Of a stretch of DNA of 32,000 nt, positions 14,213-30,757 are shown in pieces. The translations under genes and the position numbers were made by a program. Numbering within the stretch: position 1 is the first letter of the stretch; each line of letters starts with the position of its first letter. Under the pieces are notes generated by a model. It did no database searches and was not told the DNA's origin. It saw nothing but the letters and a program-made list of their open reading frames with translations. The stretch comes from Promethearchaeota archaeon (GTDB lineage Archaea; Asgardarchaeota; Hermodarchaeia; Hermodarchaeales; Hermodarchaeaceae): the NCBI GenBank assembly GCA_048938295.1, contig JBHLMI010000002.1, forward strand, positions 60,001 through 92,000. The letters run 5' to 3'.

Positions 14213-15325
14213 GTGAGTTACGGGAGCAATCAAAAACGAGACTACTATGAAGTACTCGGTGTCGATCGGAAAGCAACAAAGGCTGAAATTCGAAGTGCCT
14301 ACCGTAAACTTGCTCTGAAGTATCACCCAGACCGGAATAAAGAACCTGGTGCAACTGAGAAGTTCAAAGAAGTTTCAGAAGCCTATGCAATACTCTCTGA
14401 TGATGACAAACGCCTCCAATATGACCAGTTCGGTCACGCCGGCATCTCCGGGCGTTATAGTGCCCAGGATATATTTGGTGGCGTTAACTTTGAAGACATT
14501 CTACGCAGTTTTGGTCTAGGAGGTGGTCTCGGAGGCTTTGGAAGTATCTTTGATTTTTTTATGGGACGAGGTACATCACGACCTTTCCAACGAGATCAGG
14601 CCATCGATTTACGATACGATATGAAAATCTCCCTCAAAGAAGCTGCAACTGGTATTGAAAGGGAAATTACCATAAAACGCGACGAACAATGCCCCAAATG
14701 CGGAGGCAGCGGTGCAGAACCGGGAACTCCTATGAAAACTTGTTCTCGCTGTGGCGGGCGTGGCGAATTACGCCAAGTCCAACAGACCATGTTTGGACAA
14801 GTAATTCGAGTCGCCACTTGTCCCTCATGTAATGGCCAGGGGAAAACCGTAGAAACACCCTGCTCTGAATGTAAAGGAAAACGCACTGTTCGGGAAAAAC
14901 GGAGTATTCGTGTCCAAATTCCCCCAGGAGTGGAATCGGGGTCAATGCTCAGACTGAAAGACCAGGGTGCTTCGCAAAACGGCAGCCCACCAGGTGACCT
15001 ATATGTTGTCGTGCATGTACAACCTGATGATACCTTCCAGCGTGTTGGCGATGACATCATCATCGAGTTACCGATATCAATCACCCAAGCGGCATTAGGA
15101 GCGGAAATAGAGGTTCCTACACTACTTTCCAAAGCCAAATTAAAGATTCCTGCAGGAACACAACCTGACACTATTTTGCGGTTGCGAGGACAAGGGATGC
15201 CCCGCACCCGATGGCGAGGAAACGGTGATCAACTCATCCAAATTAAGGTAGAAGTACCTAAGAAGCTGAACCGACAACAGCAAGAACTCCTGGAGCAACT
15301 TGCTGAGGAACTGGATAAGAAGTAA
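14213..15325 (+). CDS. dnaJ: Hsp40 co-chaperone DnaJ
   Basis: [16 protein letters not shown]-rich region, four CxxCxGx(G) repeats and the C-terminal PGDLYV domain. Confidence 0.98.
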
Positions 15326-15326
15326 T

Positions 15327-16712
15327 TTAGTCAGCCTTTGCAATGAGTTGAATATCACGGAACTGAATGGATGGGCCAATGAGTGAACCACCTGGACCAA
15401 CCAAGTAGCGACGCAAATCGCTGCCCACAACATCCACCTTCTTGATAAGCTCAAATGCATTGCCTGCAATCATCAAACCATGCACGGCACCTACGAGTTC
15501 ACCATCGATGATCCGGTATGCAGGATTTGCCACGACGCTATAATCCCCTGTTTCCCTATTTGATGAATGGACACCTTGTAGTCCTTTAATCAAGTAACCG
15601 GATTTCGTCTCACCGATCAAGTCATCTAATGACTTTGTTCCAGGTGAAATCACAATGTTTGTTGGGGCTGTATCAACATCACCGGTTCGAAGATTTCGAC
15701 TTGCATTACCAGTGCTGTTTGTACCATGGCGGAGTGCCCAGTAATTATTCCAGAGAAAGGAACGAAGTTTTCCTTTCTCAACAAGGGGAGTCGTTTGCTG
15801 TGGAATTCCTTCTCCGTCAAATAGTGCTGTTGCATATCCTCCATCGAAGCGTCCATCGTCAGTGAATGTAAGAGCTTTGGCGGCAATAGGCGTGTCAATT
15901 TTCTCTGCTAGTTGGGACTTGCCACGAACAACATTTTCACCTTTCAGGGCTTCTAATAATGTATAGCTCAGGAGCGCTCCTAATGCATCGGCTGTAAGAA
16001 TTATCGAACCTGTTTCAGTATTGCCTTTCTCTGAGTTCTGAGCAAGAAGGACATATTTCACCGAATCATTGACGATGTAATCCAAATCAAGCTGAAAATG
16101 GCGATTAACATCAATGGAAACTGCAGCTGGCGTCATTCCAGTCGCAGTGGGTAACACCAACACCGTATATGCATAGACACCAGTTCCTCGATCCGAGATA
16201 ACAATTCCATTGGAGTTTGCATAAGCAGCCCAACCATAAAACCCACCAGTTCCCGCCTCCCCAATGATGATTGCAGGATTCTTTTCCTTGACGGCTTTAG
16301 TAATCTGAGTTGACAGATCAACAAACACACTTGGATCTTTTTCTGGAATAGACCCATCCCAAAGGCCAGTAAGTTTTTGATACTTTGTCTTTAAGGGAAA
16401 GTCTTTCCATGTCTTATCCAGTGTACTCGCCTTAGCTGCTGAAATCGCCCGATTCACTGATTTTTCAATAGCAGATTGATTTAACAGATTAGTATAAGCT
16501 GAGCCTAATTGGTTGTTGATGACGACACGTATTGAGGCTCCAACGACTTGGGATTTTGTTGCTTTACTAACTTCACCAAGAGCGACTTCGCAGCTAATAT
16601 CATAGTTGTCCTGAATCATAATTTCGATCTGATCAGCTTTTTTGGACCCATAAGCGATTGCGTGTTCTGCTAGACTCGCAATTGTTTGTTCCCTGTCTTT
16701 CATTGTTTCCAT
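15327..16712 (-). CDS. pmbA: TldE/PmbA-family protein
   Basis: LTFTDDG..ALFDGEGIPQQ..LVEKGKL, STGNA, TNIVISPG and GDYS. Lacks HExxGH and is paired with tldD. Confidence 0.9.
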   Translation of the reverse strand: METMKDREQTIASLAEHAIAYGSKKADQIEIMIQDNYDISCEVALGEVSKATKSQVVGASIRVVINNQLGSAYTNLLNQSAIEKSVNRAISAAKASTLDKTWKDFPLKTKYQKLTGLWDGSIPEKDPSVFVDLSTQITKAVKEKNPAIIIGEAGTGGFYGWAAYANSNGIVISDRGTGVYAYTVLVLPTATGMTPAAVSIDVNRHFQLDLDYIVNDSVKYVLLAQNSEKGNTETGSIILTADALGALLSYTLLEALKGENVVRGKSQLAEKIDTPIAAKALTFTDDGRFDGGYATALFDGEGIPQQTTPLVEKGKLRSFLWNNYWALRHGTNSTGNASRNLRTGDVDTAPTNIVISPGTKSLDDLIGETKSGYLIKGLQGVHSSNRETGDYSVVANPAYRIIDGELVGAVHGLMIAGNAFELIKKVDVVGSDLRRYLVGPGGSLIGPSIQFRDIQLIAKAD

Positions 16713-21043: not shown

Positions 21044-22030
21044 TTGACAAAATTATCTACCATACAATGGGTTTCTATACTTGGCGGAGTAGGAGCTGTA
21101 GTTAGCCCATTTGTAGCTCTTTATCTATCAATGGCACCATTTCCCGTCTATTATTACTCTCCTTTCTATTACATGTGGGGTTTATGGCCTCTGTTTGCCC
21201 TGTTATTTTTCTCAGGGTTACTTGCATTGATTATGACAATCCACACAGCCCAATTCATTGAAAAAATGCCACAACGCGCCGCCACAGACTTGAAGACAGT
21301 AGGCATTCTCATTATTGTGGTGGGCATTATCTCTTTATTCAATCTGTTAGCCATCATCTCTGGCTTCCTTATTTTAGCAGCTGGGGTCGAATGTGGGACA
21401 ATATGGCAGAAAATTCGTCAAGCGCGAATGAAAACAGGGTGGCCTTTTGGCACGGTTGCAACGGCCACAGGAAGCACCTGGGCACGACGAATCTCATGCC
21501 GTTTTTGTGGAGCACCACTTGTGATTATGGCGGCATCATCCTATGGGCACACTGTGCGTTTGGACACTCAATGTCCACTGGATGAAACTCATGATACACT
21601 TCAACTCCCGCTTTCTCAGCTCGATGCATGGGCCCCTGTGGCTGCGGATCGGCTGCATCGCTGCGTGAAATGTGGGGACCGAACCGTCGCCCAAATCATC
21701 GTTCGCCAAACACCGGTCTTATCCCAATTACAAGCATATTGTCCAAAGGGACATTCTAACCGAACCTTTCGAAACATTTGGACACCCCTCTACCCCTATG
21801 TAGCCCGCACCCCAAGTACGGATGTCAGTTTCCAGGGAGCCCTTACCCAACCCCGATTCCGTCCATCTACATTCACCCCTCGAATAGAACCTCTACCACA
21901 ACCCATAACCATATCCTCTAGTAATTCTGAAAGTATACGTGCCGGACCGATAGGATATTGCACTCAATGTGGTGTTAAAATTGAATCCTCTGATCGATAT
22001 TGTTTCCGGTGCGGTGCATCCATCCGATAG
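21044..22030 (+). CDS. Membrane protein (3-4 N-terminal TM) with two tandem CxxC..CP(x)H fingers and a C-terminal zinc ribbon
   Basis: GGAGGA SD. Hydrophobic residues 9-116, then C152/C155..C177..H183, C207/C210..C233..H237, and C306/C309/C320/C323. Confidence 0.85.
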   Translation: MTKLSTIQWVSILGGVGAVVSPFVALYLSMAPFPVYYYSPFYYMWGLWPLFALLFFSGLLALIMTIHTAQFIEKMPQRAATDLKTVGILIIVVGIISLFNLLAIISGFLILAAGVECGTIWQKIRQARMKTGWPFGTVATATGSTWARRISCRFCGAPLVIMAASSYGHTVRLDTQCPLDETHDTLQLPLSQLDAWAPVAADRLHRCVKCGDRTVAQIIVRQTPVLSQLQAYCPKGHSNRTFRNIWTPLYPYVARTPSTDVSFQGALTQPRFRPSTFTPRIEPLPQPITISSSNSESIRAGPIGYCTQCGVKIESSDRYCFRCGASIR

Positions 22031-23371: not shown

Positions 23372-24952
23372 TTAAACTGAATCGAAGAAGGCTTTGCCAA
23401 AGGAGTGGAACAAGAGCTTTTTGATCATTGGTGCTGAAGGATTTTGGCTGGCATACAAAAAGTAGACTAGGCCCCCAAAAATGGGAACAAGCATACTACT
23501 TGCAAACGCTTTCCATGAATTAATTCGTAATCTGGGTCGCCAGATATCCAGGTTGAGTTTCCATGCCCGTATAAAGACTTCCCATTGCAGATCAGTTAAG
23601 GCTTCAATTTCTGGTTGACTTCCCGTACTTAGAATCGATGGACGCAATGGCACCCATAGGAGGGGCGTGACAAAGAGCTTCATCCCCTTCATGTCATCTA
23701 GGAGTTCAAGTGTAGCGTTTACATCTTCTTCATCTTCTTCAGGCAATCCTACTATCCAAGTTGTTAGAGGGAACCACCGATTATCGTTGAGAATACCAAC
23801 AGCTTGTTTAACGATTTCTGGCCACTGTTCAGGTTTGAATGGAATCGATTTCCCTGCCATCCGTTTTTTAAAGAGTCGGACACTGCCGGTTTCAATCCCT
23901 GCCTCTGCTGTGACATAGGGTTTACCTCCCCGTTTATACCGACCATGTGAGACAAGAAGTTCTGCAACTTCTTCTGTGCATTTGGGATCTGCCACAACGG
24001 GGGCTAGGGCAATATGAGCTGGCTGAATATATTGCAGCCCAGGGACCTTGACCAGATTTTCAATTAGATTCACTATTGCTTTCCGATTTGGGATAAACTG
24101 TGAGGAGTTCATTCCATAAAGAAACAGGTCCTCAGTAGCTAAAATGGTCATATCATTTCCAGATTTAACATTAACAGTGACTTCTTTGAGGATTTGATCT
24201 ATTGGAATTGAAAAACGAGAGCGTTGCGTTGGCGTACAAAATTGGCACCCACGACCACAGCCTCGAGTAATCTCAACCGTGCCATGAAGGGATCCCCCTC
24301 GAATGACTGGGATATCTTCGGGTTTTCGAAGCACACCACCAACTGTAGTGGAGGGAAGCTGGTCACCATTTACTGCTTGATGAAAGAGCTTTACCACGGA
24401 GGGACCGACTTCGCCAGTAACAACGCAGTCAATGCCAAGGCTTTTTCGCGCAATACGTCCGCCAACCTGCCATGCACCAGCTCCCCCGACAATGACCTTG
24501 GCCTGCCCCTTGTCATGCATCTTGGCGATTGGAGTGTTTCTTAAAAGATGCCTGAACTCACGTCGATTTCGTGGCTCTGTGCCTAACGCGAACATACTCG
24601 AATAAGTAAGACTCACGTAGGCAATGCCTAATGGGTCCATGCTTGAGACCCCTATTACGCGTGTGTTGGATCCAATGAATTGCTTCAAATTCTTAGGATG
24701 AACTACCGCTACTTCAGATTCATCAAATCCATTATCGAGAAGGAGTGCCTCAGCTTTTCTTAAGCCATAGGGTGCGATGCTGGCCCGAGTATTAGACAGA
24801 TTTTTTGCTTTAGGCATGTAAAGAGGCTTGAGGAAGCTAGGTATGAGAAGAAATGACCCAGCGAATGCTCCGAATGGGTCATCGCCAAAATGACTCATCT
24901 CAATTTCGGAAGCTGTTAAGATGATTTTTGTGCCGTTCCTCGTTTGGGCCAT
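23372..24952 (-). CDS. Radical SAM protein with N-terminal B12-binding-like domain, resembling the GDGT ring synthase (Grs) / GMGT synthase (Gms) group
   Basis: GCGRGCQFC (CxxxCxxC). N-terminal KIILTAS, APYGLRK, VVHP, SSMDPLG and KVIVGG motifs, plus GIETGS. GAGGT SD before ATG 24952. The family assignment rests on recalled motifs, not a search. Confidence 0.7.
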   Translation of the reverse strand: MAQTRNGTKIILTASEIEMSHFGDDPFGAFAGSFLLIPSFLKPLYMPKAKNLSNTRASIAPYGLRKAEALLLDNGFDESEVAVVHPKNLKQFIGSNTRVIGVSSMDPLGIAYVSLTYSSMFALGTEPRNRREFRHLLRNTPIAKMHDKGQAKVIVGGAGAWQVGGRIARKSLGIDCVVTGEVGPSVVKLFHQAVNGDQLPSTTVGGVLRKPEDIPVIRGGSLHGTVEITRGCGRGCQFCTPTQRSRFSIPIDQILKEVTVNVKSGNDMTILATEDLFLYGMNSSQFIPNRKAIVNLIENLVKVPGLQYIQPAHIALAPVVADPKCTEEVAELLVSHGRYKRGGKPYVTAEAGIETGSVRLFKKRMAGKSIPFKPEQWPEIVKQAVGILNDNRWFPLTTWIVGLPEEDEEDVNATLELLDDMKGMKLFVTPLLWVPLRPSILSTGSQPEIEALTDLQWEVFIRAWKLNLDIWRPRLRINSWKAFASSMLVPIFGGLVYFLYASQNPSAPMIKKLLFHSFGKAFFDSV

Positions 24953-25048
24953 GTAATGACCTCTTGAGAGAGTGCGCAACGGGTCAATGCATTCTTGGTC
25001 CACAAAAAGCTTCTGCCTATTAATCTGAAAGAGAGTCTAGGAGTTCAA

Positions 25049-25510
25049 CTAAGATTGTTCGAAATGAGATTGTAGGTTTTTGAGGGTTTGGCGAGCATCT
25101 GCCCGAATCTGTTCATCGAGTTGTTGCTGGGTCTCTTCATCGATTTTACGTCCTAGGAACACTTCAGGCAAGTCATAGGTAATTTCGTAAGTTACCCGTG
25201 TGCCATTCGCGGTGTGCTCAAAAAACCACCGAGCATCCTTGAATGGTTGCCCTGAAAGTGATCGAACATGTAAAGATCGACCTAGTTGAAGTTCAACAAC
25301 TTCTAATTCTTGAGTAAAGCGAAAGTCCTTAACACTGACGCCCATCGCGAAGCGGGCACCAACACCCCATAGAGCCTCTGTGGTCGGATCATAACTTGTT
25401 ACAGAAGCGATGAGCTTGGGAACATTTCGATGATTTACGGCATATTTGAACACTTGCTCAAGGGGGGCTTTGATTTCGATACTTTCGCTGACATCTGTCA
25501 TTTTCTGCAT
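25049..25510 (-). CDS. SRPBCC (START/polyketide-cyclase fold) ligand-binding protein
   Basis: SESIEIKAPLEQVFKY, WFFEH..GTRVTYEITY and a C-terminal helix ending TLKNLQSHFE. Confidence 0.85.
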   Translation of the reverse strand: MQKMTDVSESIEIKAPLEQVFKYAVNHRNVPKLIASVTSYDPTTEALWGVGARFAMGVSVKDFRFTQELEVVELQLGRSLHVRSLSGQPFKDARWFFEHTANGTRVTYEITYDLPEVFLGRKIDEETQQQLDEQIRADARQTLKNLQSHFEQS

Positions 25511-25546: not shown

Positions 25547-26875
25547 TTAGCGATGTAAGTATTCATTCCATTCGAAATCGGTGATCGTTTCGTGTGTGTA
25601 TTTATGCCATTCTGCTTCCCGAATAGCTTTGTAAACATCACAGAACTCCTTACCAAGAACCTCACACAGAACATTGTCGACCTGGAGCGCATGAAGCGCC
25701 CCTTTGAGGGATTCAGGGAGTTGTGAGATTTTCAATTGGTTCAATCTTTTTGATGAAAGTTCGTATACATTTTCAGTGACAGGTTCTGGAGGCTGAAGTG
25801 TACGTTCAACACCATTGATACCCGCACCAAGTAAAACGGCAAATAGAAGGTATGGATTCGCAAGAGGATCAGCAGAACGAAATTCCACCGCCGCTTTTTC
25901 AACACTATCAAAGAGAGGAACTCGGATCAGTGCTGAACGGTTGAGATACCCCCAACTGATATAAACGGGGGCTTCAAAGCCTGGAACGAGTCGTTTAAAA
26001 GAATTTACCGTCGGATTAGCTAACGCTGTGATTCCAGGAGCATGGTTGAGCAGACCAGCAACCAAATGTAATCCTGTATTGGAAAGGGTGCCATCCGGCT
26101 TTCCCAATAGATTTTGATTACCTTTCCAGAGTTGGAGATGGCAATGAAGACCGCTCCCTGCTTCACTGGTAAAGGGTTTGGGCATGAAACTAACTTCAAT
26201 ATCATAAAGGGCAGCACGTCGACGAAGAAGCAGTTTGAAGAGCAGGTAATTGTCTGCAGCGCGTCCCAGCTCAGTGAAAGCGAGTTCGATTTCCTGTTGG
26301 CTTTGTCCGTGCTCTGAATGCAACCAAGCCGTTTCGATTCCGATGGCTCGTAAATCAAGGGCTGTTTCAATTAGGAGATCCATACCCTGATTTTCAGGAA
26401 AAATATCCGCATATTCAGCGTCATCAAGGGGAATCCCATCTTCAGTCAAAAGGTAGAATTCCGGTTCGAGTTTAACACGTATTTGGAGACCTTGGGCAGC
26501 GAGTTGTTCCAGGTTCCGTTTTAGAATTGTGCGCGGTGCCAGTGGATGAGGGGTGAGATGCCCCTCTGGTCCGCGTTGGTATACATCAGCAATGACTATT
26601 GCGCGTCGAGGATGGCTATTTGGTAATTCCTGAAGAGTAGAAATGTCCGGAACCAACCGGAGATCTGAAGCGGTAATTGAAGCTAATCCCTTCACCGATG
26701 ACCCATCAATGCTACACCTGGGAACAGAGGAGGAGTCCTTCTTTAGTGCTGAAATAGAATCAACAGGTCTGATGGGTACAGTCATACCCTTGGGGACACC
26801 ATCAATATCGACCGTGAGTAATTCGACAAAGTGCAGTTTTCCTCGAGTTTCAGCAGGATTCAGTGTATCGGACAT
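25547..26875 (-). CDS. glnA: Glutamine synthetase family protein (type I-like)
   Basis: DIDG..KG, IDGSS, EPEFYL, HSEHGQSQQEI, SFMPKP, GSGLHCH, NSFKRLVPGFEAP, RSALIRVP and EFRSADPLANPY. Confidence 0.8.
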   Translation of the reverse strand: MSDTLNPAETRGKLHFVELLTVDIDGVPKGMTVPIRPVDSISALKKDSSSVPRCSIDGSSVKGLASITASDLRLVPDISTLQELPNSHPRRAIVIADVYQRGPEGHLTPHPLAPRTILKRNLEQLAAQGLQIRVKLEPEFYLLTEDGIPLDDAEYADIFPENQGMDLLIETALDLRAIGIETAWLHSEHGQSQQEIELAFTELGRAADNYLLFKLLLRRRAALYDIEVSFMPKPFTSEAGSGLHCHLQLWKGNQNLLGKPDGTLSNTGLHLVAGLLNHAPGITALANPTVNSFKRLVPGFEAPVYISWGYLNRSALIRVPLFDSVEKAAVEFRSADPLANPYLLFAVLLGAGINGVERTLQPPEPVTENVYELSSKRLNQLKISQLPESLKGALHALQVDNVLCEVLGKEFCDVYKAIREAEWHKYTHETITDFEWNEYLHR

Positions 26876-27023: not shown

Positions 27024-28955
27024 ATGAAAGGGGCCCGATCACTTCTTTGTCTCCTCCTTATCCTGTTCTTTCTTCTTCCTTCCAACGCCCCAACCGATTT
27101 AGTGACCTCATATTCATCGCCAACTCCTCAAATAAGCTCATACTCACCCAATAGCTACCAGGTATTAGATTCCTCGCCAGAGAAGTCGACATTTTCGTCG
27201 AATGGAAATCCCCCCCGAAATTGGACGGTTCTCGTGTATATGGCTGCAGACAATGACCAGGAAATTGCAGCTGTTGATAACATCAAGGAAATGGAACTTG
27301 TTGGGTCAACCGAACAGGTGAATATCCTAGTCTATGTGGATTTCCTGACTAACAACACAAGCTTTGGCCCAGGAGCCTACACCTTCAATATCACAAAAGA
27401 TGAGCTGCCATTGAATAACACAATTGTTTCTGAACCCTTGAACACCACACTTCCTGATGAGCCCAATATGGGTGATCCCGCTACTCTTCTGGGCTTTATC
27501 GAATTTGGTCAAAACTATTCCCAGGCCGCTAACTATCTTCTCATCCTATGGGATAAAGGAGGAGGTTACAAGGGCGTCTGTTACGATGACACCAGCGGCG
27601 GAGACCGCCTTCTCCTCCAGGAAATCGCGATAGTACTCGAAAATGATACACTCGAGCCCATTACTCTCACTGCCTTTGATGCTTCATTCATGGGACAAAT
27701 CGAACTCGCCTACGAGATAAAGGAGGGCACCGAGCTTATCGTTTTTTCAGAAGAGGCAGTTCCTAATCAACATTTCCCCTACCACATTATTTTCAACAGC
27801 CTCATTTCACACGAAGATTCAAGCTCATACCTGTTGGCGAAGGAAATCGTTGATCGTTACGTTGAAGCCTACTCCCCCCTTGGTACTTATTATAATCCAG
27901 TCTCACCGCAGACTCGGCTTTGTCTTTCAGTCGTTAATACTACACTAGTAGGTGATGTCTTCGATTGGTTCAATCGTACCACCACCTGGCTAACCACTGG
28001 TTATAACACTCTTACTCACTATCAGGAAATTAGCGCCGCACGGGGATTAACTCAACAATTCAATCTACCGTCTTACATAGATTTAGGTGGCTTCGCCTAT
28101 CAACTCTCACAGTTAATAGAGAATATCACTTTCACTCATTATACCGGGAATCTTAGCCTTAGTGTCCAGACAGCAGTTTCTTACCACCGTGCCCTCTCGG
28201 GATTACCTGGTGCGTCAGGGCTAGCCATGAATTTCAACTCTTATGAGTCGGTGTCACTGGCACTTCTAGATAATAGCGTATACGAAGACTTTCTTTCCAC
28301 ATTCCTTAGCCTTGGAGAAACAACAGGCACCTCCATAATCTCCTTAACACTTGGCCCCATTCGGGGATACCTAGATGGAAAAGATGACTCTGTATTTTAT
28401 CGGTTCACCTCACAAATCGCTATAGAGCATACCATCACGCTTAGTGCCTTTCAACCCACTGATGACGACTTTGACCTCTATTTATACGATAGTAATCTGA
28501 ACCTCCTCACCCGATCCGTCGGTTTAACATCCGATGAAACCATACAGTGGGTACTAATTCCTGGACGGCTTTACTATATCCGTGTTCATTCCAGTCCACG
28601 GACTGATATCACATATGGTCTCGGTTCATTTGAATTGCTGATAACTCCAAGTTCACCAATTAATCCAGCATTAGTTGCACTACACATCGGAATCATCGTT
28701 GCCATCATCTGTTTATTTATTCTTGTGCTCTACATCATTTGGCGTAATCGAGAACGCATCACACGTGCCATTGAACGATATCGAGTACGACGAATGGCTA
28801 GGCAGCTCCAATCTGAAGCATCGACGGCAACTACACCGTCAACAGGGACGCCAGGAGCTTGTGTGAAGTGTGGTGAACAACTTCCAGAGGAGGCCCGATT
28901 CTGCCCCAACTGCGGGGAAACTTTTGAGGAGTCTTCAGACGACAGGGAGGGTTAG
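27024..28955 (+). CDS. Type-I membrane protein: clostripain (C11, clan CD) fold with non-canonical active site, PPC-like beta domain, TM helix and cytosolic zinc ribbon
   Basis: Signal peptide, WTVLVYMAADN, EPNMGDPATL, LILWDKGGG, FDASFM, FSEE..P and IDLGGF. Then DDFDLYLYD..YYIRV (PPC-like), TM ALHIGII..YIIW, a basic stretch, and CVKC-x10-CPNC. Confidence 0.88.
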   Translation: MKGARSLLCLLLILFFLLPSNAPTDLVTSYSSPTPQISSYSPNSYQVLDSSPEKSTFSSNGNPPRNWTVLVYMAADNDQEIAAVDNIKEMELVGSTEQVNILVYVDFLTNNTSFGPGAYTFNITKDELPLNNTIVSEPLNTTLPDEPNMGDPATLLGFIEFGQNYSQAANYLLILWDKGGGYKGVCYDDTSGGDRLLLQEIAIVLENDTLEPITLTAFDASFMGQIELAYEIKEGTELIVFSEEAVPNQHFPYHIIFNSLISHEDSSSYLLAKEIVDRYVEAYSPLGTYYNPVSPQTRLCLSVVNTTLVGDVFDWFNRTTTWLTTGYNTLTHYQEISAARGLTQQFNLPSYIDLGGFAYQLSQLIENITFTHYTGNLSLSVQTAVSYHRALSGLPGASGLAMNFNSYESVSLALLDNSVYEDFLSTFLSLGETTGTSIISLTLGPIRGYLDGKDDSVFYRFTSQIAIEHTITLSAFQPTDDDFDLYLYDSNLNLLTRSVGLTSDETIQWVLIPGRLYYIRVHSSPRTDITYGLGSFELLITPSSPINPALVALHIGIIVAIICLFILVLYIIWRNRERITRAIERYRVRRMARQLQSEASTATTPSTGTPGACVKCGEQLPEEARFCPNCGETFEESSDDREG

Positions 28956-30757
28956 TCCTTTAGAAGGGCTTCCAGTTGAGTTATGAATTCCTCAGCTTGC
29001 TTCATGCCCAGTTCCCAAAAGTCCTCCTTTGAAATATCGAAGCCCAGTTCAGCTGCTAGCTCTCGTGGAGAGCTAGTGCTACCTGCTGAAAGCAGCCGTT
29101 TGAGCTTAGGTACGAAATCTTGTCCTTGTTCCTTGTAGAGTTGGTAAAGAGCATACACAAACAAATTTGCAAAAACGTATGGATAATTGTAAAGTCGGTA
29201 GCGTGGAATGTAGTAGTGTCCTTTGAAGGTCCACTCCCATTTACTTTCTGGTAGCCACTCGACAGCATCACCAAACATGCGGTCTCGTCCCTTCACCCAA
29301 TACTTTGAGATGGTTTCACCGTCAAGATATTCGCCGCGCTCAAAGGCAGCATACATATCCATTTCGAAGAAATATCGAGCAGAGACTTGGAAGACGGTTT
29401 GTCCAAATTCATCAAGGACCTTCGCTAAGACTTCGAGCTTCTCATCTTTGGTCTTAGCTTCAGCAATGAGTTTGTCAGTGAGAAGTAGTTCGCCAAAGAT
29501 ACTACCAACTTCTGCAATACAACTGCCAATGTCCATATTGATGGGTTTGTGTTTTGCAGTCATGAGATAATCATGGACAGCGTGACCATTTTCGTGGACT
29601 AAGGTGAAGACTTCGCCCAGTTTGCCATTATAGCTCATAAGGATGAATGCCGACTTTCCGGCAACCCAGGAGGCACAGAATGCTCCTTGGCGTTTGCCTT
29701 CGCGAACGTCTCCATCAATGCGACGCTTATCAAACATCTCCACCACGATTTTTGCCAGGTCAGTATCAAATCCGTGGTAAGTATCGATGGCCATTTGCCG
29801 GGCTTCTTTCCATGTAAAACTACGCTCAGGCATATTGGGTAAAGGTGCGACCACATCCCATTCACCGAGTTTGGGGAGGTTCATGATTTTCGCTTTCAGT
29901 CGAAGATACTTCTGATAGAGAGCAGTATGGTTATCAACGGTATTGATCAGTGCATCGATGGTCTCATCATCAACATCGTTGTCGATAAGGCTTTGTGTAC
30001 GAGGAGACGGCCAGTTCCGTTTCTTACTTGTCTCTATATGGTCGCCGATTATGGCACGGACTGCACTGGCCCAGAGAATCTGGTCTTTGCTGAGACCGGT
30101 CCAGATGATGCTCTTAGCCGCTTTGCGAACATCACGGTCAGGATCCTCGAAGAGGGCATGAATCTGGGTGAACGGCATTTGCTTCAGCTCTCCTTCGATT
30201 TCGATTTCAAACATCCGAGTCGAGAGCCAGTCACCATGAAGTTGCTGCCAGGAGTTGATGCCGAACTGATCCTTTTGAATAATTAATTGCTCGAGCTCTT
30301 CGCTTAGCATATGAGGTGCGGTACGAGCTGCTTTTTCAAGAGCATGTTTGTATTCAGCTAGCTCAGGATTCTCGATAAGTTCAGGTTTCGCCGCTACTAA
30401 CTGGGCGAGTTCGATTTCCGTGAAGGCTAAAAGTTGCCCTATCTTCGAGCCCATTCGTCTTGCCAAATCGGCTGTCTGTTTGGCATCCTCGTCGAGCGAA
30501 TTGGCTTGGTATGCAAGATACGCATATTTGAATGCCCCTTCACGTTTCAAATACTGGTCCTGGGTTTTTTCCAAGAACTCCAGTAATTCCTTTGGGTTCA
30601 GCTTCCCGATTTTTCCTTTATACTTGGATGCTAATATTTCTGCATCTTGGACTGCTTTTTCCATTTGCCTTTTCAAACTGTCGAGTTTCGTCGAAGATAC
30701 CATTGGGCCTAAGTCCCACGACTCTCCTTTAATTGTCATAATAGTTCGCCCCATCAT
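28952..30757 (-). CDS. pepF: M3B oligoendopeptidase F
   Basis: N-terminal WDL, GKRQGAFC, VFTLVHENGHAVH, AEVGSIFGE, and HYYI..LYNYPYVFA. Confidence 0.93.
   Translation of the reverse strand: MMGRTIMTIKGESWDLGPMVSSTKLDSLKRQMEKAVQDAEILASKYKGKIGKLNPKELLEFLEKTQDQYLKREGAFKYAYLAYQANSLDEDAKQTADLARRMGSKIGQLLAFTEIELAQLVAAKPELIENPELAEYKHALEKAARTAPHMLSEELEQLIIQKDQFGINSWQQLHGDWLSTRMFEIEIEGELKQMPFTQIHALFEDPDRDVRKAAKSIIWTGLSKDQILWASAVRAIIGDHIETSKKRNWPSPRTQSLIDNDVDDETIDALINTVDNHTALYQKYLRLKAKIMNLPKLGEWDVVAPLPNMPERSFTWKEARQMAIDTYHGFDTDLAKIVVEMFDKRRIDGDVREGKRQGAFCASWVAGKSAFILMSYNGKLGEVFTLVHENGHAVHDYLMTAKHKPINMDIGSCIAEVGSIFGELLLTDKLIAEAKTKDEKLEVLAKVLDEFGQTVFQVSARYFFEMDMYAAFERGEYLDGETISKYWVKGRDRMFGDAVEWLPESKWEWTFKGHYYIPRYRLYNYPYVFANLFVYALYQLYKEQGQDFVPKLKRLLSAGSTSSPRELAAELGFDISKEDFWELGMKQAEEFITQLEALLKD

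Follow-up and report, generated by a model that had tools for sequence, protein, structure and literature searches.

Does a clostripain-like protein that has exchanged both residues of its catalytic dyad work as a protease of another class, or is it a dead protease that has been kept? This question is raised by a gene of a Promethearchaeota archaeon, located in a stretch of 32,000 nucleotides (GenBank assembly GCA_048938295.1, contig JBHLMI010000002.1, positions 60,001 to 92,000 of the forward strand) that we call the window. The product of this gene carries Lys178 in the motif W-D-K-G-G-G and Ser221 in F-D-A-S-F-M, 43 residues apart, as we confirmed by re-reading both codons (Table 1). An earlier note on this DNA had assigned the two residues to the His and Cys positions of a family C11 peptidase (clan CD) and had proposed either a Ser-Lys enzyme or a dead protease serving as a peptide-binding sensor. 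Our analysis indicates that the protein is probably a pseudopeptidase, catalytically inactive and paralogous to a membrane-anchored C11 protease, and that it has been kept. It is best read as a neofunctionalised pseudopeptidase similar to TbMCA4 and the pseudo-orthocaspases, yet belonging to family C11 and to the Archaea.

Both the sequence profile and the predicted structure, a clan CD fold followed by a C-terminal subdomain, make the protein a member of the C11 family. Residues 71-387 match PF03415 (Peptidase_C11) in Pfam with E 2.6e-38 and 132.9 bits, the cut-off being 25.8 bits. In the AlphaFold2 (AF2) model, built on 38 homologues, the mean predicted local distance difference test (pLDDT) is 86 and the core exceeds 90; the top Foldseek matches of this model are all C11 structures (E 1.5e-21 to 1.6e-17), among them clostripain (9cip, E 1.5e-21) and thetapain (6n9j, E 2.8e-20). 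The assignment of the dyad positions proved correct: in a phmmer alignment to clostripain 9cip_A, Lys178 pairs with the His of N-H-G-G-G and Ser221 with the Cys of F-D-A-C-L-M, and the C11 structures 6n9j and 6mzo (a P. distasonis zymogen) align the two residues likewise. Of the residues expected in an active C11 enzyme, the catalytic His is replaced by Lys178 and the catalytic Cys by Ser221, while the Asp of the primary specificity (S1) pocket is present as Asp219, two positions ahead of the nucleophile site. Sequencing error is ruled out, since the same Lys/Ser state occurs in orthologues of five other assemblies (G001, G003, G004, G012 and G014); it is also seen in many metagenome contigs, with the synonymous codons AAA/AAG at position 178 and TCA/TCC/TCT/TCG at position 221. 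The argument that each swap takes two nucleotide changes stands for His to Lys and falls for Cys to Ser, where one suffices (TGY to TCY or AGY); to reach the specific TCA codon of Ser221 from Cys takes two.

To describe the two positions among relatives, we combined a word-indexed search (64 homologues), a full HMMER scan of 1.84 billion representatives, which gave 10,185 matches (E 0.001 or below) and of which the best 150 were used, and a six-frame search of the assembly of the window and of its relatives. The closest matches listed among these best 150 of 10,185 bear Asgard names wherever they are named (Promethearchaeota, Hermodarchaeota, Odinarchaeota). The orthologue set comprises 37 rows (35 distinct), mostly from a single genus (g1). 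Position 221 is Ser in 35 of the 37 rows, encoded by all six Ser codons, and is Ala in P0012 and Asp in P0015, both of which are intact syntenic genes. Position 178 is Lys in 16 rows, His in ten, Ile in four, Glu in three, Leu in two, and Val and Tyr in one each, an entropy of 2.07 bits between the invariant neighbours W176, G179 and G181. Within the genus, Lys/Ser is the state of G000, the genome of the window, and of the five assemblies named above; G010 and G013 are Ile/Ser, G002, G005 and G006 His/Ser, G011 Leu/Ser and G007 Tyr/Ser. Databases label such proteins 'clostripain-related cysteine peptidase'.

We analysed the history of the family with a maximum-likelihood tree, from which the trait columns were taken out beforehand. 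All Cys-less forms group in one clade, which has support 100/100 and arises from within the His/Cys proteins that share its architecture. His178 is still present in the earliest branches of this clade (P0025 and P0017), and Lys178 is confined to a crown subclade (the Lys clade) that descends from His-bearing forms. The chromosomal position tells where this took place. The gene lies downstream of the divergent glutamine synthetase gene glnA (25547-26875, minus strand), and on its other side pepF (28952-30757, minus strand), which encodes an M3 oligopeptidase F-like protein, converges on it, the two 3' ends overlapping by 4 nt. This three-gene order is kept across the genus, and the Cys-less orthologues are flanked by glnA and/or pepF wherever their flanks are readable. 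P0026, the nearest His/Cys sister, adjoins glnA and has pepF a few genes off; as it sits in the same neighbourhood, the nucleophile was lost in place. Functional coupling to glnA or pepF was considered and rejected despite the synteny: the two genes, which lie on the opposite strand, have cytoplasmic housekeeping roles, and no evidence points to such coupling.

The Cys-less copy is found in 14 of the 15 genomes of the genus. A second copy, with 36-40% identity, occurs in 12 genomes and was checked as His/Cys in seven of them. In G000 it is locus L001 (contig C50, 1285-3198), which encodes a protein of 637 aa with about 39% identity to the window protein; its domains come in the same order, and both the H-G and the D-A-C motif are intact. 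This paralogue allows a direct comparison of selection on the two copies. Between G000 and G001 the ratio of nonsynonymous to synonymous substitution rates (dN/dS) is 0.18 for the Cys-less copy and 0.15 for the active paralogue, and other pairs of the Cys-less copy give 0.09-0.22, so that the Cys-less copy is under purifying selection. N77, G179, D219, S242 and E243, which mapping via PmC11 and thetapain identifies as the S1 pocket and the oxyanion glycine, are 100% conserved in the Cys-less clade. A different set of residues, invariant in the active forms, has lost its conservation there: L79, D86, N88, Y121, P167, H178, C221, G250, A358, A374, E388, H390 and L391. The erosion is graded; the basal His/Ser members keep most of these invariants and the Lys clade almost none. 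Relaxed selection on catalysis would be expected to produce just such a stepwise erosion around a missing nucleophile; continued proteolysis is hard to square with it. For E388 and H390, a phmmer search with the C-terminal subdomain of the active paralogue against the Protein Data Bank (PDB) gave chance matches only; we do not claim that they equal the P3/P4-contacting Tyr347 and Thr349 of thetapain, as the mapping is approximate, to within about 3 residues.

The clade has gained features as well. Ectodomains of the Cys-less clade contain 9-13 N-x-S/T sequons, versus 0-5 in active relatives, and these predicted glycosylation sites appeared at the time the nucleophile was lost. The ectodomain of the window protein (27210-28658) has twelve, six of which are kept in at least 20 of the 25 Cys-less rows; N122, N305 and N376 occur in every one of the 25 rows, and N207 is missing from one. 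The Lys clade further differs from the active paralogues by an acidic tail and a conserved basic helix on the cytoplasmic side, both of which these lack. The idea of a dead protease that is kept is supported by the dN/dS value of 0.18, by the intact S1-pocket residues beside an eroded network of active-form residues, and by the intact His/Cys paralogue in the same genome. Its suggested role as a peptide-binding sensor may apply; the transmembrane helix and the zinc ribbon were rejected as marks of a sensor specific to the dead form, because active paralogues carry both. The protein presumably does not cleave peptides and would act as a glycosylated binding or structural module at the cell surface, possibly as a natural substrate trap or as a partner of the active paralogue.

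These observations can be arranged into a scenario. The Asgard family has two paralogous type-I membrane proteins, each built from a signal peptide, a C11 domain, a beta-sandwich, a transmembrane helix and a cytosolic zinc ribbon. The copy between glnA and pepF exchanged its nucleophilic Cys for Ser in one genus. With this the general-base His probably became dispensable; it drifted, to Lys in G000, and about a dozen other active-form invariants eroded stepwise. The protein was kept under purifying selection all the same and was also remodelled: its ectodomain acquired many conserved sequons, position 250 a basic residue, and the cytoplasmic side a new conserved helix and an acidic tail.

Residue 250 deserves attention in its own right. 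It follows the position of PmC11 Asp207 by alignment, on a loop that lines the S1 pocket and binds the substrate backbone, and the Gly of the G-x-P-Y motif of this loop is found in 166 of the 180 canonical C11 domains sampled. Every orthologous lineage that lost His178 has replaced Gly250: the Lys/Glu, Tyr and Leu lineages now have His there, and the Ile/Val lineage has Arg, along with His180. Gly250 is retained in every lineage that kept His178. Each of the 37 rows contains exactly one His when positions 178, 180 and 250 are taken together. The same coupling recurs in the unrelated pseudo-C11 domains P0105 (Gln178, Ser221, His250) and P0132 (Gln, Ser and Lys at these positions), with an exception in P0200 (Tyr, Ser, Gly); P0058 was dropped as a further event, its loop motif being too divergent to align safely. 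The raw counts of the 178/250 coupling are 22/1 versus 2/189, which correspond to only about five or six independent events. His, Arg and Lys are all found at position 250, and we therefore infer that a basic side chain there may compensate for the lost imidazolium or plug the acidic S1 pocket.

The codons of Ser221 divide in the same way. They are AGY in the keepers of His178 (L011, L012, L014, L035 and L036) and TCN in the losers (L003-L010, L013 and L015), and this split is perfect. A switch between AGY and TCN requires a non-Ser intermediate (Cys or Thr). The split may reflect parallel losses of Cys (TGY to AGY and TGY to TCY), or a single clade of His178-losers that is misplaced in the tree. 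An approximately unbiased (AU) test speaks against the monophyly of the losers with p 0.026, for a group that was named after the tree had been seen, and three concordant rare characters favour a single origin. Under either codon history, Ser221 is under selection as an amino acid.

Some of these results weigh against an inactive protein. Ser221 is strongly kept, which a purely vestigial residue would not need, and its retention across all six codons argues for selection on Ser itself. All losers of His178 have His or Arg at position 250 or His at position 180, and an imidazole or a base could still be needed near the active site. Nor is the site grossly destroyed, with the oxyanion-hole Gly179 and the S1 Asp intact. 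Ser is, however, the preferred replacement in the pseudo-orthocaspases that keep their pocket, so its retention is typical of clan CD pseudoenzymes. The same facts can be put together as an enzyme in which Ser221 is the nucleophile and the base is a relocated His (still His178 in basal forms, but His250 where position 178 is Lys, Glu, Tyr or Leu and His180 where it is Ile or Val), Lys178 being non-catalytic. Such an enzyme, which we consider unlikely, would explain why 35 of 37 rows keep Ser221 although its codon has changed synonymously within both families, why each row has one His among the three positions, why Gly179, N77, D219, S242 and E243 are invariant, and why the unrelated P0105 likewise joins Gln178 and Ser221 to His250; the AU result would then suggest repeated co-occurring changes, but comes from a group defined after seeing the tree. 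Yet the Ile/Val lineage has Arg, and P0132 Lys, at position 250, so that the property common to the replacements is a basic side chain, not an imidazole. The erosion of about a dozen active-form invariants, including E388-x-H390 and the glycine of G-x-P-Y, is unexpected if catalysis and recognition were kept, Ala221 and Asp221 occur in intact orthologues, and the His/Ser forms of clan CD tested so far, natural or engineered, are inactive. It is very unlikely that the clade records a stepwise Cys-to-Ser class switch with base migration inside one genus, which would make it the first serine-type hydrolase in the caspase-haemoglobinase fold. The Ser221-Lys178 dyad that the earlier note entertained, after the model of signal peptidase, LexA or Lon, is extremely improbable. 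Both residues do occupy the ancestral dyad positions, and Lys is kept through synonymous AAA/AAG in 16 of the 19 rows of the crown clade, but syntenic orthologues of one genus have Lys, Glu, His, Ile, Val, Leu or Tyr at position 178, Lys being restricted to one crown subclade whose sister lineages have His, Ile, Val, Leu or Tyr. Such free variation is the outcome that the earlier note had named as refuting. Even within that subclade Lys and Ser do not co-occur invariably: three members carry Glu178, a charge reversal in otherwise intact genes, and one Lys178 member has Ala221. The C11 fold is, moreover, unrelated to those of families S24, S26 and S16. Finally, we give almost no credence to a decaying gene or an assembly artefact without function. 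Its one instance is the G007 orthologue (L015, contig C48, about 14478-16571; Tyr178, Ser221, His250), whose reading frame is broken by a TGA and which carries additional sequence around residue 290, and this interruption may be real decay in G007 or an assembly error. Twelve further genomes of the genus and dozens of metagenome contigs carry full-length intact open reading frames (ORFs), which contradicts the idea, as do the dN/dS values of 0.09-0.22 and the new conserved features.

If the protein is a pseudopeptidase, its dead ectodomain might serve as a regulatory partner that binds, is cleaved by or modulates the His/Cys paralogue, a more specific proposal that we regard as possible though doubtful. 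The pairing of cFLIP with caspase-8 offers one analogy for such a role. TbMCA4 with MCA3 offers another (PMC3220528). The two copies occur together in at least seven verified genomes of the genus, and probably in 11, and pseudo and canonical C11 domains stand in tandem in single polypeptides (P0078: His/Cys, His/Cys, His/Ser; P0080: His/Cys, His/Ser; P0084: His/Asp, His/Cys). On the other hand, the dead and active genes are unlinked, on different contigs; no active copy was found in G003, G009 and G014, genomes that have the dead copy and are 75-88% complete; and solved C11 enzymes such as PmC11 are monomeric (PMC4850288). A complex prediction with the active and dead ectodomains scored 0.00, which carries no weight either way. 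The tandem C11 proteins themselves, to which P0105 also belongs, are large multi-domain proteins of other lineages, with two or three C11 domains, in one of which Cys is replaced by Ser or Asp and the rest of which are canonical.

The coordinates of the gene and of its features are collected in Table 1. The public gene call of this ORF, P0001, has 571 aa and starts at Met73; it drops the signal peptide and the strand around W67-T68 (W-T-V-L-V-Y), which is common to all homologues, and translation most likely begins at the ATG at 27024. The beta-sandwich of residues 440-545 matches the collagen-binding domain of ColG (2o8o) in Foldseek with E 1.7e-06 and a TM-score of 0.82 normalised by the target.

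Table 1. Features of the C11 gene and of its product, in positions of the window
Feature	Position	Strand	Basis
Whole gene, 643 aa + stop	27024..28955	+	ORF list, Pfam, AF2 model
Inferred N-terminal signal peptide or anchor, residues 1-23; basic n-region, Leu/Phe-rich core	27024..27092	+	Sequence; model helix 2-17
Ser/Pro/Thr-rich disordered linker, residues 24-62	27093..27209	+	pLDDT <50 at residues 18-61
Peptidase_C11 (clostripain-fold) domain and C-terminal helical subdomain, residues 63-435	27210..28328	+	PF03415; Foldseek
Asn77, aligned with S1-pocket Asn50 of PmC11; invariant in dead and active forms	27252..27254	+	Alignment; PMC4850288
Lys178 (AAA), catalytic His position; varies among orthologues	27555..27557	+	Codon, alignment
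Asp219, primary S1 specificity Asp (PmC11 Asp177, clostripain Asp229); 100% in dead clade	27678..27680	+	Alignment columns; PMC4850288
Ser221 (TCA), catalytic Cys position; Ser in 35/37 orthologue rows	27684..27686	+	Codon, alignment
His250 (CAT), in place of the Gly of the G-x-P-Y substrate-loop motif	27771..27773	+	Orthologue alignment
Residues 388-390, H-R-A here; invariant E-x-H in active relatives	28185..28193	+	Column statistics
Beta-sandwich, residues 440-545, like pre-peptidase C-terminal / collagenase collagen-binding domain	28341..28658	+	Weak PF04151 match; Foldseek
Single transmembrane helix, residues 548-574	28665..28745	+	Hydrophobic stretch; model helix 548-574
Basic cytoplasmic juxtamembrane helix, residues 576-600; kept in Lys clade, absent from active paralogues	28749..28823	+	Model; alignment
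Cytoplasmic C-x2-C ... C-x2-C zinc ribbon, residues 613-631, then acidic tail	28860..28916	+	PF13240 E 3.9e-07; Cys codons checked

Two observations concern other genes of the window. The protein encoded at 21044-22030 (plus strand) also ends in a PF13240 zinc ribbon; C-terminal ribbons of this kind seem to be widespread in this genome rather than a special trait of C11 proteins. At 23372-25510 (minus strand), a Pfam scan identifies a radical SAM protein (543 aa) adjoining a protein of the SRPBCC/polyketide-cyclase fold (153 aa).

Trypanosomes and cyanobacteria are known to have pseudopeptidases of the caspase clan, and our literature search found no description of a C11 pseudopeptidase or of an archaeal clan CD pseudopeptidase. 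What this locus adds is a graded series, from His/Cys through His/Ser to His-less forms with a basic residue 250, held at the same chromosomal position in one genus, with the active paralogue as an internal control. The series reveals the order in which the active site was dismantled and what was gained in exchange, namely glycans (as predicted sequons) and a cytoplasmic helix. As the coupling of His loss to a basic residue 250 recurs in unrelated pseudo-C11 domains, it may serve as an annotation rule for dead C11 domains. For Asgard cell biology, the locus adds a conserved surface protein, predicted to be glycosylated, with a cytosolic zinc ribbon.

We compared the protein with its canonical relatives. 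It shares the fold with clostripain (9cip), PmC11 (3uws), thetapain and iotapain (6n9j, 6nag), with Foldseek E values of 1e-17 to 1e-21, together with the framework of Y-x-x-x-D-N, W-x-[H]-G-x-G and F-D-A-[C]-x-M, the S1 Asp and the G-x-P-Y loop. Unlike these enzymes it has Lys for His, Ser for Cys and His for the loop Gly, lacks the long activation linker after the His motif, and adds a beta-sandwich, a transmembrane helix and a zinc ribbon. Its own-genome His/Cys paralogue is likewise a membrane protein with the same order of domains and a cytosolic zinc ribbon, but has an intact dyad, Gly250, E-x-H and 5 sequons versus 12, and is without the basic helix and acidic tail. With the Ser-Lys peptidases (signal peptidase, S26; LexA, S24; Lon, S16) only the residue types are shared; the folds are unrelated, and Lys is unconserved here.

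The closest parallels are found among natural and engineered proteins that have lost their Cys. TbMCA4, a natural His/Ser form, is inactive, and changing Ser to Cys (S219C) restores an activity that cleaves after basic residues (PMC3220528); in C11 itself, the C136S form of PNT1 fails to complement (PMC4850289). Like the protein described here, TbMCA4 has the caspase-haemoglobinase fold with Ser for Cys, is kept beside active paralogues and is membrane-associated. It differs in belonging to family C14B, in keeping its His, and in being eukaryotic and lipid-anchored in the cytosol or released, whereas the C11 protein has lost the His too and is an archaeal type-I membrane protein with predicted glycosylation. 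Plasmodium SERA5, papain-like and with Ser at the Cys position, is reported to have a non-enzymatic role (PMC4671257); it resembles our protein as a natural Cys-to-Ser homologue of a cysteine protease that is kept and functions without proteolysis, and it differs in being of clan CA, eukaryotic and soluble in the parasitophorous vacuole. Pseudo-orthocaspases come as Tyr/Ser and Tyr/Asn variants, with Ser the commonest residue at the Cys site and the acidic pocket kept, and the survey that described them found none in Archaea (PMC6426788). They too have both dyad residues replaced, keep the fold and the acidic pocket, and coexist with true variants; they belong, however, to family C14, occur only in Bacteria and have a fixed Tyr/Ser or Tyr/Asn state, whereas here the His site varies within one genus. 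Three marks of clan CD pseudopeptidases are found in this protein: the Cys is replaced with the fold and the acidic pocket kept, selection is purifying, and an active paralogue is present in the same genome. The C11 paralogue with Ser for its lost Cys is thus likely to represent a type of pseudopeptidase known in clan CD, now in family C11 and in the Archaea.

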